Source of the DNA: an uncultured Candidatus Saccharibacteria bacterium
GTDB taxonomy: Bacteria; Patescibacteriota; Minisyncoccia; Minisyncoccales; CG1-02-41-26
Assembly (NCBI GenBank): GCA_964348225.1
Contig: CAYGBM010000035.1
Coordinates: 9,425-73,424 of the forward strand
Length of the DNA: 64,000 bases
Direction: 5' to 3'
A program made the position numbers and the translations under genes. This document shows positions 1,394 to 59,880 of the stretch, piece by piece (within the stretch, counting starts at the first letter, position 1; the number at the start of each line of letters is the position of its first letter). The notes below the pieces were generated by a model. The model had not been told where the DNA came from. It saw only the letters and a list, made by a program, of their open reading frames with translations, and did no database searches.

Positions 1394-2545
1394 TTAATTT
1401 TTTAAATAAGCACGGCTAAATCTTTTTTGAGCTTCTGTTTTCTCTCGTATTGAAATCTTGCTTTTTTGAATGCCTTTTTCCACAACATCCAAAAGTCTAT
1501 CATATTCATCTTGGCTCACAAAAAAGGGTGTGCCATCCTTGCCACCAACTGTAAACGAATATCTTGCTGGGTCTTCATAAGATGGTTTTGCCCCATATAT
1601 TAACTCGCTTACCAAGCTCAAAGCCCGAATGGTTTTTGGCCCAATACCCTTTAGAGCCAAAAGCTGTTCAAAGTTCTGGGGCTCCTGTGCTTTAGCAAAA
1701 AAGATTGTTTTTTCTAATCTTTTTAAATCAAATTTCTCTTCAAGCACTTTGTGCGAATAAAACTCAACATTGTTCAGCTCCATTTCAGCGAATCCTGGCA
1801 TTCTTTTCTGCTTTATTAAAGCATTTGTCTTTTCAGAAATCAATCTCATATCTTTTAAAAATGTTTTAGGCTCCTCTCTGACCAATTCTGTTGAAACGTC
1901 TTTGTTCTGTCTGCTTTCCCTAGCAGTTAAATTCAAAGGCTTAACCCTAGCTTGTGAAGCAATGCCAGAGTGAGGTTCTTCAACAAATTCTTTAATAGCA
2001 GGGGAGAACCAATGATAACGTCTTGCTTTTTGAATGTCTTGTCGCATGCCCTGTTGAACTACTGTCCACTGTCCTGATTTGCTGAAAATTAAATTGTGGT
2101 GATAGATCTGAAATCCGTCTTGAACTAAACTTGAATCTACCTTAGCTGAAATTTTACTTGCATAAACAAGCTTGTCAATTTTATCCAATGGCCAATGTAA
2201 AAACCCTCCCCATTCTTGAATGTGCTGAGGGGTTTTGCGGGAAGTAGCCCCTTTGCCACCACAAACAAAAATCCCAAGCTGGCTTTCCAACCCCCTGATT
2301 CCTTCTTTTACAGCCCCCAAGGTGGTAGTAGTTAGGCCGCTGGAATTCCAGTCAAAGCCAATCACACACCCTAGGCTTTGAAACCAAGTGGGGTCAGAAA
2401 GCCGCTTCAAAACCTCTTCTGGTCCAAATTCCTCAGCAATAGCCAGCATTATGCCCCGCGACAACCTTTTCATCCTCTCAAAAAGCCACTTAGGACACCT
2501 CCCCCAATCCAATGGAACTGTAGCAATACCTGTTCGCATCCCCAC
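1394..2545 (-). CDS. DUF763-family protein; GTG start, alternative ATG 2 codons in
   Basis: 383 aa. N-terminal block TGIATVPLDWGRCPKWLFERMKRLSRGIMLAIAEEFGPEEVLKRLSDPTWFQSLGCVIGFDWNSSGLTTT recalls the conserved N-terminus of DUF763 proteins. This is from memory, not a search. Confidence 0.45.
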   Translation of the reverse strand: MGMRTGIATVPLDWGRCPKWLFERMKRLSRGIMLAIAEEFGPEEVLKRLSDPTWFQSLGCVIGFDWNSSGLTTTTLGAVKEGIRGLESQLGIFVCGGKGATSRKTPQHIQEWGGFLHWPLDKIDKLVYASKISAKVDSSLVQDGFQIYHHNLIFSKSGQWTVVQQGMRQDIQKARRYHWFSPAIKEFVEEPHSGIASQARVKPLNLTARESRQNKDVSTELVREEPKTFLKDMRLISEKTNALIKQKRMPGFAEMELNNVEFYSHKVLEEKFDLKRLEKTIFFAKAQEPQNFEQLLALKGIGPKTIRALSLVSELIYGAKPSYEDPARYSFTVGGKDGTPFFVSQDEYDRLLDVVEKGIQKSKISIREKTEAQKRFSRAYLKN

Positions 2546-2853
2546 ACCAAACGAGCTTATGCTTCGAGGCTAAGTTTAATTCTATTCTTAAGCTGTCTCA
2601 AAGCTTTCGCTCGCAGTTTAAGATTATGCTCTCGATGAAAAGCATCTTGTTTTGCCCTGTAAGCTTCATAATAAATAAGATGCAATGACTTTCTCAACCT
2701 CGTCGATTCAACAAGTCCTAAATTATGTTCTTTAAATCTTTTACGAAGGTCGCTTGTGCATCCAATATATAAGTTACCATCCTTTTCACTTTTTAATATA
2801 TAGACAAAGAACATAATTTAAAGCTCGTTATGGTGTGGGGACGCATATGTTTT
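2536..2853. mobile_element. GIY-YIG gene enclosed by a ~23-bp inverted repeat (gcatccccacaccaaacgagctt ... aagctcgttatggtgtggggacgc). This is a filled copy of the ccccacacc/ggtgtgggg hairpin family.
   Basis: Left arm ~2536-2560 and right arm ~2831-2853 are near-perfect reverse complements. Uninterrupted copies of the same hairpin occur at ~32177-32210 and ~41761-41795. Confidence 0.5.
2557..2814 (-). CDS. stand-alone GIY-YIG nuclease domain protein
   Basis: 85 aa. FFVYILKSEKDGNLYIGCTSDLRKRFKEHN matches the GIY-YIG motif (Y-x10-YIG ... R ... EHN). Confidence 0.7.
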   Translation of the reverse strand: MFFVYILKSEKDGNLYIGCTSDLRKRFKEHNLGLVESTRLRKSLHLIYYEAYRAKQDAFHREHNLKLRAKALRQLKNRIKLSLEA

Positions 2854-25730: not shown

Positions 25731-25854
25731 AATTATTCATCAGCCAACATTAAAACTAGTAAATAGTCTTAAGAACACTACTTACTACTTACATATTTAC
25801 TACTCACCCCGTTAGAAATTTGTAAATTTCTAACGGGGCTTACTAATTGCTCCG

Positions 25855-31921: not shown

Positions 31922-32176
31922 TTTATAATTTTACTCTCAAGTTGCTCCAAAAACAACCAAAAAAACAGGCATGATAACCTGCTTTTTTTCTCGCCCTGTT
32001 AGACAAAAAGCTTTCTTTCTCTAACAGGGCGAGGAGAGGATGGACCCCAATTCCAGAAACCCCTTGGCTGAGCGGATGTTGCTCAGGGATACCCAAAGCT
32101 CCTTTCATCGAGTTCCTTACATCCTTCCACCTCCCCTCAATCTCTATTTTATTCTTCCAAAGGATTATGTCAACCC

Positions 32177-32210
32177 CCACACCAAACGAAGTTATGGTGT
32201 GGGGGTCAAC
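32177..32210. repeat. GC-rich hairpin cccccacacc-aaacgaagttat-ggtgtggggg (empty copy of the element family that hosts the GIY-YIG gene)
   Basis: 10-bp perfect stem. Same sequence at 41761-41795, directly abutting the ruvC stop. Half-sites flank the GIY-YIG ORF at 2536/2853. Confidence 0.6.
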
Positions 32211-32243
32211 CCCGTTAGAGATTAAGAGGTGTGAATTGCAAGA

Positions 32244-41278: not shown

Positions 41279-41761
41279 GTGATTATCACAGGAATAGACC
41301 CAGGCACAGCAACTACAGGCTATGGCATTATCAGAAAAACAAAAAGGGGCTTAAGGTGCCTTGATTACGGTATAATCGCAACCAGCCCCAAGCTTTCCCC
41401 AGAGCAACGTTTGAGACAGCTGAACAATCAGCTCAATAAACTTCTCACAATACACAAACCAAAACTAATGGCTGTTGAGGCTGTGTTTTTTTTCAAAAAC
41501 CTGAAAACCGCTATGCCTGTTTCAGAAGCAAGAGGAGTGATACTTCTGGCTGCTGCTAAAAAGAAAATTAAAGTTCAGCAGTTAACGCCCCTGGAAGTAA
41601 AAATGGGTATCTGCGGGTATGGCAGGGCAGACAAAAAACAAATCCAAAAGATGATAAAAGAAATTTTAGGGCTGAAAGAAACCCCAAGACCTGATGATGC
41701 AGCAGATGCTTTGGCTGTGGCTGTGTGCTGCTCTATTAAAAATCGGAAGGTGAAGGCTTGA
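41279..41761 (+). CDS. ruvC: crossover junction endodeoxyribonuclease RuvC
   Basis: (M/V)IITGIDPGTATTGYGII N-terminus, GTG start. 160 aa. Confidence 0.85.
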   Translation: MIITGIDPGTATTGYGIIRKTKRGLRCLDYGIIATSPKLSPEQRLRQLNNQLNKLLTIHKPKLMAVEAVFFFKNLKTAMPVSEARGVILLAAAKKKIKVQQLTPLEVKMGICGYGRADKKQIQKMIKEILGLKETPRPDDAADALAVAVCCSIKNRKVKA

Positions 41762-41942
41762 CCCCCACACCAAACGAACTTATGGTGTGGGGGTTGACAA
41801 CCTCTTTGGAAAATGTACAATTTTGAGTAATACGAAGAAAAAGGTCATACTTTTTCCCTACCTTAACCTTAAGGGGAAAAAGCTCCGATAGAGCAAAAGC
41901 TTTCTTTACCCTGTCAGCCTTAGTTGGACAGGGTAAAACGGG

Positions 41943-48370: not shown

Positions 48371-48592
48371 ATGACGCAGAAAATAACCCAAAAAATATTT
48401 TTAAAAGCTGTTAGGCTTTATCAACTTTTAATCTCTCCTTTGCTGGGACCGCGCTGTAAGTTTTATCCCTCTTGTTCTGAATACAGTATTTTGGCAATCA
48501 GAGAACATGGAATATTGAAGGGGATTGTTTTGTCTTGCTGGAGAATATTGCGATGCGCTCCCTGGAGTGAGGGAGGAGTAGATTTGCCGTAA
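48371..48592 (+). CDS. yidD: membrane protein insertion efficiency factor YidD
   Basis: [54 protein letters not shown]. Confidence 0.9.
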
Positions 48593-48593
48593 T

Positions 48594-48692
48594 TAAGAAT
48601 TAAAAATTAATAATTAAGAATTTAATTAAAAGTTAAAAGTTTTCGATTGTTGATGTAATTCTTAACTTTTAATTCTTAATTATTAATTTATT
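48594..48692. repeat. AT-rich palindromic element (aattaagaatt / aattcttaatt family), complete hairpin copy
   Basis: aattaagaattaaaaattaataattaagaatttaattaaaagttaaaag - loop - cttaacttttaattcttaattattaatt. Further copies at 50047-50168, and split around the 59449-59823 gene. Confidence 0.7.
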
Positions 48693-48695
48693 GTT

Positions 48696-49502
48696 GTGAA
48701 CCCTCTCATTAGATTTTTTACCATAATATTATATCAGCCACTCTTTAACCTTTTGATACTCATATATGTCTATTTTCCAGGGCATGATTTTGGAGTGGCG
48801 GTGATTCTTTTGACCCTAATTATCAGGCTAATTCTTCATCCTTTCTCCAGAAAGGCAATTGTTTCTCAAAAAGCATTGGGCTTGTTGCAGCCGAAGATTA
48901 AAGAGCTTCAGCAAAAGTATAAGAATGACAAAGCCCAACAAACAAAAGCAATAATGGAGTTGTACAAGAAAGAGAAGATTAGTCCTATGTCTGGCTGCTT
49001 TCCTATCCTCTTGCAGTTGCCCATTCTTATTGCCCTTTACCAGGTCTTCTTGAGGGGATTTGGGCCAGAAATTTTAAGCACTTATCTTTATGGCCCGGTG
49101 CCTAATCCCGGCGAATTCATCCCGACTTTTTTGGGAATTATTAATTTGGCTGAACCTAATTTAATTTTAGCAATACTGGCTGGGGCTTTACAGTTTTTTC
49201 AGTCGAAGATTTCAATGAAGATGCAGCAGGGTAAGAGGAAATCAGGCAAAAAAGACATTTCTTCAATGATGCAAAAGCAGATGTTGTATTTCTTGCCCCT
49301 TCTGACTGTTTTTCTTGTTTGGAGGTTTGGGGCGATTATCGGGCTTTATTGGGTGGTTAGCACCGCCTTTGCAATTGGAGAACATTATTTAGTAAAATTC
49401 AAAGCTCAAAACCCTTCGAAGCAGGGCAAGTCCACCAAGGGGCTGGCAAAAAGCGAGCTTAGTTCCGAGCCTAGTTCCAGGGAAACTACGTCTCAAAAGT
49501 AA
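48696..49502 (+). CDS. yidC: membrane protein insertase YidC (short form)
   Basis: 268 aa, 5 TM. Conserved LLQLPILIALYQVF and GLYWVVS segments. Confidence 0.85.
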   Translation: MNPLIRFFTIILYQPLFNLLILIYVYFPGHDFGVAVILLTLIIRLILHPFSRKAIVSQKALGLLQPKIKELQQKYKNDKAQQTKAIMELYKKEKISPMSGCFPILLQLPILIALYQVFLRGFGPEILSTYLYGPVPNPGEFIPTFLGIINLAEPNLILAILAGALQFFQSKISMKMQQGKRKSGKKDISSMMQKQMLYFLPLLTVFLVWRFGAIIGLYWVVSTAFAIGEHYLVKFKAQNPSKQGKSTKGLAKSELSSEPSSRETTSQK

Positions 49503-50046: not shown

Positions 50047-50168
50047 AACAAGGATTAATTAAGAATTAAAAATTAACAATTAAGAATTAAATTTAAAATT
50101 AAAAATTACAACCTCTTAAAAGAAATTCTTAATTAAATTTTTAACTTTTAATTCTTAATTTTTAATTC
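50047..50168. repeat. AT-rich palindromic element, second complete copy
   Basis: aattaagaattaaaaattaacaattaagaattaaatttaaaattaaaaatt - loop - attcttaattaaatttttaacttttaattcttaatttttaatt. Confidence 0.7.
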
Positions 50169-59390: not shown

Positions 59391-59880
59391 TATAAATTAA
59401 GAATTGAAAATTAATAATTAAGAATTTAATTAAAAATTAAAAATTGTTGTGAGGTATTCAAATAAAGAAGAATTCAAGAAAGCGCTTAAGAAAAGAGCTT
59501 ACAACTTTTCAATCCAATTGGTGAACTTTACCGAAGGATTACCCAGGGGCAACACTTGCTTTATTATTGGCAATCAACTTCTTCGCAGTGGAACAAGTAT
59601 TGGTGCAAACATTGTAGAAGCCCAGGGCGCGAGCTCAAAAAGAGACTTCATTAATTTTCTCACCTATGCTTTTAAATCTTCCAATGAAACCAGATATTGG
59701 CTCGGCCTTTTACGAGATACAGAAAAAGCAGATCAAGAACAGGCTAATAGTTTGTTAACAGAAGCAGATGAGCTTTCAAAAATATTGAGTTCAATTCTGT
59801 TGTCCTTAAAAGGAAAAAAATAATTCTTAATTCTTAATTAAATTTTTAATTCTTAATTCTTAATTTTTAATTCATATAAG
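59391..59880. mobile_element. four-helix-bundle gene carried in the loop of an AT-rich palindromic element (IVS-like cassette)
   Basis: Left half-element 59391-59448 (aattaagaatt... motifs). Right half 59824-59880 (aattcttaatt... motifs, the reverse complement). The halves match the left and right arms of the intact hairpins at 48594 and 50047. Confidence 0.55.
59449..59823 (+). CDS. four-helix-bundle protein (TIGR02436; 23S rRNA intervening-sequence protein family)
   Basis: GTG start. YNFSIQLVNFTEGLPRGNTCFIIGNQLLRSGTSIGANIVEAQGASSKRDFINFLTYAFKSSNETRYWLGLLRD matches the family pattern (...R.A.SI..NIAEG..R.S.K.F..FL.IA.GS..E..T.L). Confidence 0.7.
   Translation: MRYSNKEEFKKALKKRAYNFSIQLVNFTEGLPRGNTCFIIGNQLLRSGTSIGANIVEAQGASSKRDFINFLTYAFKSSNETRYWLGLLRDTEKADQEQANSLLTEADELSKILSSILLSLKGKK

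Follow-up and report, generated by a model that had tools for sequence, protein, structure and literature searches.

A GIY-YIG nuclease gene between the halves of a hairpin: a candidate IS-like element with miniature relatives in Patescibacteria

We analyzed a 64-kb stretch of DNA from contig CAYGBM010000035.1 (the window; coordinates refer to it unless a locus number beginning with L is given), in which a gene for a small GIY-YIG nuclease lies between two inverted repeats at the start of a DUF763 gene. We read gene and repeats together as an insertion sequence (IS)-like element that is mobilized by its own nuclease and has short, gene-less relatives resembling miniature inverted-repeat transposable elements (MITEs). 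We put the probability of this reading at about 0.7. Sequence comparison has shown several of its parts in silico: the insertion of the unit as a whole, 4-bp target duplications, the independent insertion of the miniature copies, multiple and recent copies, covarying stems and the association of the gene with its arms. The original prediction had proposed a small selfish cassette tied to a hairpin family, and this proposal is borne out by the presence of the unit at many unrelated Patescibacterial loci, with target duplications and with copies that are 99% identical.

The two arms of about 20 nt are complementary to each other except for a single 1-nt bulge. The description of an 85-aa GIY-YIG open reading frame (ORF) between inverted arms was accurate, and the Pfam match agrees with it (Table 1). 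On the plus strand, the arms read T CCCCACACC A AACGAGCTT (2539-2558) and AAGCTCGTT AT GGTGTGGGG A (2821-2841). The outermost gca and cgc bases, previously counted as part of the arms, belong to a direct repeat that flanks the element and reads CGCA on the plus strand (2535-2538 and 2842-2845). The boundary is uncertain by 1 nt, as the outermost T/A pair could instead belong to a 5-bp duplication.

The insertion can be seen directly by comparison with relatives that lack it. The gene order RtcB-NIF3-DUF763 is kept in three relatives (L099, L100 and L101, the last a complete 639-kb Nealsonbacteria genome), and their DUF763 is 75-80% identical. None of the three has either the hairpin or the GIY-YIG gene at the NIF3-DUF763 junction. 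Their junction runs from the NIF3 terminator through a short spacer to ATGCGAACAGG / ATGAGAAC. After the spacer, L101 reads ATGCGAACAGGTATTGC, with ...aaataATGCGAACAGGTATTGCC at the DUF763 start, and L099 and L100 read ATGAGAAC... The minus strand of the window reads ...aaaacatATGCG / T-CCCCACACC...gene...GGTGTGGGG-A / TGCGAACAGGTATTGC. The window differs from its relatives by one clean 303-bp insertion, which follows base 5 of DUF763 and is flanked at either end by a copy of TGCG. Because the relatives have no hairpin, and because arms and gene were inserted together between the copies of TGCG, the arms are the terminal inverted repeats of the inserted unit. The original prediction had the gene entering a hairpin that was already in place, a model that these empty junctions do not support for this locus. 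The comparison of orthologous loci did reveal a presence/absence difference; the match between the arms is no coincidence, and in none of the relatives does the gene stand at this locus without arms.

The start of DUF763 survived the insertion. The N-termini of relatives begin MRTGIATVP, and from this the start is likely to be the ATG at 2539..2537, the A of which is the final base of the 3' terminal inverted repeat. The claim that an arm overlaps the DUF763 start holds insofar as the arm touches it, but this ATG abuts the G-run, and only a mechanically called GTG at 2545 lies inside the arm. The original ATG, now displaced, opens an upstream ORF of 18 codons including the stop (2846..2793) that crosses the GIY-YIG start. 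Gene callers were misled at this position and in two other loci (L001:2965-3275 and L014:2970-3275). Upstream genes are read through the 5' arm, which alters for instance the C-terminus of Sua5, and the called starts of downstream genes (GTG or ATG) fall within the 3' arm, in every case 11 nt past the GIY-YIG stop.

The same unit is widespread. Patescibacteria contain hundreds of homologues of 85 residues that are 69-80% identical, and a library of 1.84 billion representatives holds 3,502 relatives at E<=1e-10. We took 80 further loci from species-representative genomes, which yielded 58 non-redundant units with both cores; flanking repeats were scored in 54 non-redundant elements. The 58 units are spread over many candidate phyla, and in each of them the gene lies between CCCCCACAC... 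and ...GTGTGGGGG, with arms of 10-22 bp; whole units measure 281-330 bp. The loci examined hold no other associated protein and no larger element with these ends, except for one unit of 545 bp in L045. Insertion sites are heterogeneous and include the 5' ends of tRNA genes. The first four contexts inspected all differ (between Sua5 and SHMT, between DUF2779 and HAD, between the genes for ribosomal proteins L5 and L24, and directly after RuvC), and in 4/4, (A)CCCCCACACC... stands before the ORF and ...GGTGTGGGGG(T) after it. These outer 10 bp of the repeats are conserved in sequence across Patescibacteria. The inner 4-12 bp vary by lineage yet remain complementary (ATAACGAG/CTCGTTT, TAAT.../...ATTA, AATT/AATT and TCACA/TGTGA), even where the stem enters the last codons of the gene. 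An inner arm pairs with its own partner at -10.2 kcal/mol, compared with -5.7 kcal/mol for the partners of other elements, and 0 of 200 shuffles reached the observed value.

To score the flanks, we set the boundary of the element at [C/T]CCCC...GGGG[G/A]. Exact 4-bp direct repeats flank 21 of the 54 elements, whereas random pairing of 5' and 3' flanks would give 4.9 (no more than 11 in any of 2000 shuffles). The flanks of a further 10 elements match at 3 of 4 positions. Both flanks fit T-N-N-A (TGAA, TAAA, TTTA, TCAA, TTGA and TAGA), and rare duplications (CGTG, CACG, TGCG and TGGA) match their own partner only. Two elements stand back to back in L069:240-300, with a single TCCA common to both. 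Extension of the inverted arms into the flanks is not enriched as a general rule (12 observed, 20 expected), with two striking single cases in L092 and L014. In the first (L092:9906-10290), the 3' end of a tRNA-Leu gene serves as the 5' arm (...CCCGGGCACCA-CACCAACTT), and the 3' flank holds an inverted partial copy of this tRNA without the T-arm (TGGTGCCCGGG-CGCCAATAT). It seems that fold-back synthesis re-templated one arm from the opposite side. The second is a mini hairpin of another subfamily (L014:508-565, the same as L018:7508-7565) with the loop TATGCATA, situated between the genes for ribosomal proteins L16 and L29. With the 7-12 bp by which it reaches into the flanks, its palindrome comes to about 52 nt; there is no direct repeat, and the gene caller begins L29 upstream of the hairpin.

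Some copies are recent. Two elements of one metagenome-assembled genome (L024 and L025) are 99% identical from C-run to G-run, while their flanks, at about 57%, have no detectable similarity; near-identical copies with unrelated flanks in a single genome indicate recent movement. At least four genomes have two or more copies each. Decayed copies also occur: those in L033 and L048 are frameshifted or truncated, and those in L027 and L035 have lost the stop codon and are read through.

Where the element lands next to a gene, its 3' end can restore what was interrupted. In 13 of the 54 elements the insertion lies exactly two bases past an ATG, and at such sites the final G or A of the element joins the duplicated TGNN to form a new GTG or ATG start. 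For instance, L24 now begins GTG AAA ATA AAA AAA GGC. At other copies the G-run is followed after 4-8 nt by the ATG of the next gene, a position like that of a Shine-Dalgarno sequence. Five loci have a tRNA whose start lies within the G-run and whose first bases are duplicated upstream. The simplest reading is the survival of copies that repair what they interrupt, target preference and selection being inseparable with these data.

The core CCCCACACC occurs six times in the window against 0.10 expected, a count that 0 of 100 shuffles reached. Two uninterrupted hairpins with the same arms do exist, as had been noted, one beside tsaE and one at ruvC (Table 1). As single-stranded DNA they fold at -14 to -16 kcal/mol (z about -4.9 relative to shuffled controls). 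A 32-mer identical to the tsaE-side hairpin is found in another genome (L043:3727), flanked there by TAAA. For the ruvC site, we compared 60 RuvC loci from metagenomes. In the closest element-free relatives (L102, L107, L111 and L121), the ruvC stop TGA lies within an uninterrupted TTGACA -35 box; an example of such an empty site reads ...CTCTTGACATAAC-(17)-TATAAT, and in L102 the promoter directly follows the ruvC stop. The window reads GGCTTGA[32-bp hairpin]TTGACAACC. The original prediction regarded these hairpins as empty targets. Since each has its own 4-bp duplication (TCAA or TTGA) and the closest ruvC relatives are free of hairpins, they are insertions and not vacant targets. On sequence grounds, they would be gene-less miniature versions ("minis") of the gene-carrying unit that behave like the MITEs of an IS or the REPINs of a RAYT.

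Insertion at this ruvC spot has happened more than once. L017 has a gene-carrying copy there, which came in independently, has a duplication of 5 bp (CTTGA) and is reversed in its loop orientation; L103 has a variant mini (CCCTTCAC.../...GTGAAGGG) flanked by a TTGA repeat, and L108 another variant (CCCTCC.../...GGGAGGG) flanked by CTTG repeats. In L070 (9911-9993), a gene-carrying copy has two mini hairpins immediately upstream of it. There are also intermediate "midi" elements of 70-140 bp with the same ends and unrelated cargo. We considered that these might be internal deletions of the GIY-YIG gene, but tblastn found no ORF remnants, so their cargo is either unrelated or too decayed to recognize. 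Contigs carrying the GIY-YIG gene contain 18 minis in about 1.16 Mb, compared with 0 in 172 kb of other loci, an underpowered comparison because only about 2.7 would be expected there. The 172 kb are Patescibacterial loci chosen independently of the gene, and the absence of any core hairpin from them indicates that the element family is patchy rather than universal.

The ruvC site also lends some support to an alternative, in which the nuclease would home into an older dispersed family of hairpins or terminators, cutting empty members so that its gene is copied into the loop by repair across the homologous arms. At this spot the hairpin of the window is empty and that of L017 is filled. Moreover, empty and filled copies in one genome have the same inner-arm subfamily (ATAAC...CGTTT), and the pentamer CATAA stands at both gene/arm junctions, so conversion in either direction would be mechanically easy. 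GIY-YIG homing endonucleases, both free-standing and encoded in introns (such as I-TevI and Seg proteins), have the same catalytic fold and a selfish, mobile life-style. They differ in having a separate DNA-binding domain and a single cognate allele, and they leave neither duplications nor inverted repeats. The Patescibacterial protein has a single domain and no DNA-binding domain of the I-TevI type, its insertion sites are varied, and duplications accompany it, although homing would leave none. At DUF763, the relatives lack any hairpin, and arms and gene arrived together with the TGCG duplication. Even at ruvC, neither the length of the duplication nor the orientation agrees between the two occupants, a sign of separate events. 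We consider homing an unlikely origin for the family, although homing into existing minis through their arms may be a secondary route.

Table 1. Positions of the element, its relatives and associated features in the window
Feature	Position	Strand	Description
Gene-carrying element, complete	2539..2841	minus	303 bp: 5' inverted repeat, GIY-YIG ORF and 3' inverted repeat; ends based on alignment to L099, L100 and L101 and on the same ends in 58 non-redundant homologous units
GIY-YIG nuclease gene, single-domain, 85 aa	2557..2814	minus	Pfam PF01541, E=4e-14
5' terminal inverted repeat (gene orientation)	2821..2841	minus	T CCCCACACC AT AACGAGCTT, then TAAATT, then ATG
3' terminal inverted repeat (gene orientation)	2539..2558	minus	AAGCTCGTT T GGTGTGGGG A; overlaps the TAA stop at 2557-2559
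Target-site duplication, upstream copy	2842..2845	minus	TGCG; with 2846, the original DUF763 ATGCG
Target-site duplication, downstream copy	2535..2538	minus	TGCG; with the terminal A of the element rebuilds the DUF763 start ATG CGA ACA GGT
DUF763 gene, host gene hit in its start region	1394..2539	minus	Pfam PF05559, E=3e-126
Mini element, 32 bp, two inverted repeats and a short loop	32174..32205		CCCCCACACCAAACGAAGTTATGGTGTGGGGG; between tsaE and polA; flanked by TCAA (32170-32173, 32206-32209)
Mini element, 32 bp	41762..41793		CCCCCACACCAAACGAAGTTATGGTGTGGGGG with GAACTT; flanked by TTGA (41758-41761, including the ruvC stop TGA; 41794-41797); within the -35 box downstream of ruvC
Promoter-like site TTGACA-16-TACAAT	41794..41821	plus	11/12 consensus matches; -35 box rebuilt by the duplicated TTGA directly after the mini
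Second helix, internal arm	2710..2733	minus	K-E-H-N-L-G codons pair with the start-codon region; 24-nt inverted repeat, 83% complementary; in predicted fold
Second helix, start-codon arm	2806..2829	minus	TTTAAATT ATG TTCTTTG; pairs with 2710-2733

The protein belongs to the GIY-YIG nuclease superfamily by motif, profile and predicted fold. It scores 53 bits against PF01541 (cut-off 22.6), with an overlapping match to the related T5orf172, and contains this single domain only; a search of the protein against NCBIfam gave sub-threshold matches only. Eight residues of catalytic type (Y5, Y16, G18, R26, H30, N31, E62 and N64) are invariant in 20 homologues, and the homologue alignment has a mean column identity of 81%. 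An AlphaFold2 model (predicted local distance difference test 95.7) has the order E-E-H-E-H, that is, a beta-beta-alpha-beta core followed by a C-terminal helix of 30 residues. Foldseek matched it to UPF0213 (rank 1, BH0048), Slx1, I-TevI and UvrC. By both sequence and fold, UPF0213/YhbQ proteins (PDB 1zg2 and 1ywl) are its best relatives of solved structure; to our knowledge, UPF0213 has no assigned function, and we know of no reported link between it and flanking hairpins.

The system nearest to this one among those described is Ssn/SRM. Ssn is a group of single-domain GIY-YIG nucleases of 94 aa (cd10448) described by Chenal et al. (Nat Commun 2025; PMC11893778). Ssn binds hairpin repeats (NTS/SRM) in single-stranded DNA and cuts just upstream of them. 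The ssn genes are flanked by their own repeats, of which there are hundreds per genome. The authors note the IS-like layout and the analogy with repetitive extragenic palindromes (REPs) and RAYT, and they propose mobility; their main text contains no mention of Patescibacteria (PMC11893778). Our full-text literature searches found no description of the Patescibacterial element. For comparison we used two true Ssn loci, N. gonorrhoeae ssnA (L097 589-873, NZ_CP119140.1) and an Azospirillum homologue (L098, NC_016623.1:255506-255799), in both of which the gene is flanked by complete hairpins with a non-palindromic CGTCAT-type tag. In Azospirillum, the gene has paired SRM hairpins on either side and lies between sufB and sufC. 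We also noticed that two 2.17-Mb N. gonorrhoeae chromosomes are filed as plasmids in the plasmid collection.

The Patescibacterial gene is like ssn in encoding a single GIY-YIG domain of about 90 aa and in being bracketed by inverted-repeat DNA that is also found elsewhere in the genome. It differs in lying inside one split hairpin, half on each side, whereas Ssn has a complete tagged hairpin per side. The Patescibacterial arms have no CGTC/GTCWY tag such as that of the SRM (HGTCWY...RNCYNB), and their flanks are variable 4-bp duplications. In the protein, the C-terminal Ssn motif REKxLKKWxRxWK...LIEE...W.DL is replaced by the plain 30-residue helix. Copy numbers look low in comparison with Ssn repeats, but insertion polymorphism and duplications are visible. 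The profile of the Patescibacterial family gives 46.7 bits for N. gonorrhoeae SsnA, 51.6 for the Azospirillum homologue, and 47.1 (E=2e-11) and 32.1 for UPF0213, and on these scores the family would be roughly equidistant from Ssn and UPF0213. By analogy, gene and hairpins may work together like an Ssn/SRM or RAYT/REP pair, yet the architecture differs in the split hairpin, the lack of a tag and the target duplications.

The Ssn parallel brings with it a second alternative, about as improbable to us as homing. The hairpins would be genome-wide signals of a domesticated host system that, for instance, restricts incoming or recombining single-stranded DNA, the nuclease would be a host factor, and the present locations would be the legacy of an ancient element that no longer moves. 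In Neisseria, Ssn modulates transformation via NTS hairpins (PMC11893778). Clear purifying selection on the Patescibacterial nuclease and the conservation of the arms across a phylum would fit such a role. Copies that are 99% identical between unrelated flanks in one genome do not, and neither do the decayed copies. The closest relatives lack the element at all three window sites tested, the 172 kb of other Patescibacterial loci hold no core hairpin, and the handful of hairpins per 64 kb contrasts with the hundreds of NTS per genome.

The element seems to depend on its neighbors for expression. The gene is co-oriented with its upstream neighbor in 55 of 64 scorable cases, less consistently with the downstream one, and neither a promoter nor a Shine-Dalgarno sequence is obvious within the element itself. 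A second helix, predicted in addition to that of the arms, would occlude the initiation codon of the GIY-YIG gene (Table 1). Across homologues it pairs the start region (-8 to +9) with the codons for K-E-H-N-L/S-G, and it covaries: elements with gaatt-ATG have AAT TCA (Ser), those with aaatt-ATG have AAT TTA (Leu), and changes to aagtt, ggtt or gcatt are accompanied by AACTT, AACC or AATGC. Residue 32 (Leu, Ser or Ala) changes together with a base of the 5' untranslated region. The longest complement averages 9.5 nt, against 7.3 nt after synonymous resampling (maximum 8.2 in 300). The element would thus ride on the upstream host gene with its start codon held in a conserved helix, and we infer that upstream ORF and helix allow translational hitch-hiking while protecting against over-expression. 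IS10 is similar in that a fold-back structure hides its start codon from read-through transcripts.

These features could also be taken as those of a device acting on RNA, in which the arms pair in the transcript, a double-strand-specific RNase excises or insulates the ORF as in rRNA intervening sequences, and the hairpins serve as processing or termination signals. Inner stems that covary even inside the last codons, a covarying helix that hides the start, and a position within operons in the orientation of the upstream gene would all be expected of it. GIY-YIG ORFs have also been reported in non-intron insertions of rRNA genes of the candidate phyla radiation (CPR) (PMC11270868). Those insertions and the present element may be one and the same, but a check by conserved rRNA motifs placed none of the 80 loci in an rRNA gene. 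Pairing in RNA accounts for how insertions are tolerated, not for identical units at unrelated loci with target duplications. In addition, the outer 10 bp are conserved as sequence beyond what pairing requires, and the minis have no U-tract, one of them splitting a promoter. As a full explanation we find this improbable, clearly more so than homing or domestication, but it can be combined with an IS-like element as an addition.

That the hairpins are unrelated GC-rich stem-loops, such as ordinary terminators, that have a 9-mer in common by chance is hardly credible: unrelated viral contigs do have many CCCCACACC...GGTGTGGGG hairpins that are generic terminators, but the window has six core matches where 0.1 are expected, its three sites agree in their inner sequence too, no T-run follows any of the three, and in 58 loci the arms around the gene are the same. 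Given those viral terminators, a match to the 9-nt core by itself does not identify the family in a large database. The hairpin pattern matched at least 120 generic GC-rich terminators of unrelated phages, and in the viral contigs L174-L293 such stem-loops are frequent as A-tract/T-tract terminators, mostly in GC-rich phages. Three low-GC viral cases (L179, L209 and L276) with the common loop TTGATT might be related to the Patescibacterial family. Viral contigs contain no close relative of the gene, only partial matches of 36-50%. We dropped the idea that phages carry the element, as the viral contigs give these partial matches and generic terminators only.

Among mobile elements, the unit resembles IS and MITEs in several features: terminal inverted repeats, short target duplications, and both autonomous and miniature non-autonomous copies. 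We found inverted repeats, a target duplication together with an empty orthologous site, and near-identical copies in unrelated flanks. The element contains no DDE, HUH, Ser, Tyr or Cas1 transposase, and its sole ORF is the GIY-YIG nuclease. It is also far smaller than IS, the smallest of which measure about 600-700 bp, and its two repeats lie so near each other that they can act as a single hairpin. IS200/IS605 elements are likewise small and rely on hairpins recognized in single-stranded form, as the Patescibacterial element may do. They differ in that each end has a separate subterminal hairpin, the transposase is of the Y1 HUH type, and both terminal inverted repeats and target duplications are lacking. 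REP/REPIN sequences and their RAYT are similar in that short GC-rich palindromes are dispersed between genes, one gene is flanked by them in inverted orientation and gene-less copies are moved in trans. RAYT (TnpA-REP), however, is an HUH/Y1 enzyme, usually single-copy and vertically inherited, and REPs have a GTAG tag. The Patescibacterial unit has a GIY-YIG enzyme, is multicopy at loci that differ between genomes, makes 4-bp duplications and has no GTAG tag.

How the element might move can be sketched from its relatives. The whole unit would fold into a hairpin with the gene in its loop. The nuclease would recognize the conserved stem in its extruded form, be it hairpin or cruciform, and nick at the foot of the stem, a step that we model on Ssn as a hairpin-guided nickase of single-stranded DNA and on Slx1 as a structure-specific enzyme. 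A 4-nt staggered break at a T-N-N-A-like target, followed by host repair or ligation, would produce the duplication, and minis would be mobilized in trans. The 3' end of the element would restore the interrupted feature, be it a start codon, a Shine-Dalgarno-like G-run, a -35 box or the 5' end of a tRNA, and for this reason copies would survive at gene starts in compact genomes.

Several points weigh against an IS-like element driven by its own nuclease. Movement by the nuclease is our deduction from sequence. GIY-YIG enzymes hydrolyze DNA, and we know of none that performs strand transfer; integration must therefore fall to host functions, at which we can only guess. The window contains only three copies. 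About 40% of the elements have flanks that do not match (for example, TTTA and TGAA), which we attribute to age or to recombination between copies. The mini at the ruvC site and the gene-carrying copy in L017 could in principle be related by gene conversion and not by independent insertion. Finally, the strong conservation of the protein, with 70-80% identity across classes and invariant catalytic residues, also fits a function that benefits the host.

The window has a G+C content of 41%, and the best matches of its proteins are in Patescibacteria, above all Nealsonbacteria. Pfam identifies RuvC, TsaE, DUF763, NIF3 and RtcB among the neighboring genes. Scans of the window found no Rfam family at the gathering score and no tRNA. 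A second hairpin family, CCCCGTTAGAAAT...ATTTCTAACGGGG, has six core matches in the window against 0.36 expected, with copies at 2936-2967 and 25807-25838 and half-sites at 32017-32029 and 32210-32222. Between the NIF3 stop and the GIY-YIG element, just upstream of the latter, stands a copy that L099-L101 lack; L138:289-360 has a copy with a 45-nt loop at the same ruvC/-35 site. Elsewhere, an ORF of 124 aa (59449-59823, plus strand) that matches the 23S rRNA intervening-sequence protein family (PF05635, E=6e-26) lies between AT-rich inverted repeats of 87 nt (59391-59876), and similar palindromes without an ORF occur at 48590-48700 and 50057-50168. It is presumably the other ORF in a hairpin loop to which the original prediction referred.

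We tentatively go further, at somewhat less than even odds, and suggest that this is the first family of DNA transposons with a GIY-YIG nuclease as its sole protein and the smallest autonomous mobile element known (about 285-330 bp, 85 aa). It would move as a hairpin-ended unit with 4-bp T-N-N-A duplications, its ends would have evolved to rebuild a start codon, a ribosome-binding G-run, a -35 box or a tRNA 5' end, and its minis of 26-50 bp would be the shortest MITE-like elements described.

If the nuclease does mobilize its own hairpin, this would be a sixth catalytic class of DNA transposition and would set a new lower size limit for an autonomous element; it would also raise the question of how a hydrolytic enzyme of 85 residues achieves integration. 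The speculation of the Ssn authors that GIY-YIG genes between hairpins are IS-like would become a testable case, with clear empty sites, target duplications and recent copies. Hairpin-guided, sequence-specific nucleases are of practical interest as tools for single-stranded DNA, and the family would offer a new and highly conserved recognition sequence. For the annotation of Patescibacteria, units that sit on start codons, promoters and tRNA 5' ends lead gene callers to extend or mis-start the neighboring genes, as with the GTG called for DUF763 and the "starts" of SHMT and L24 inside an arm.

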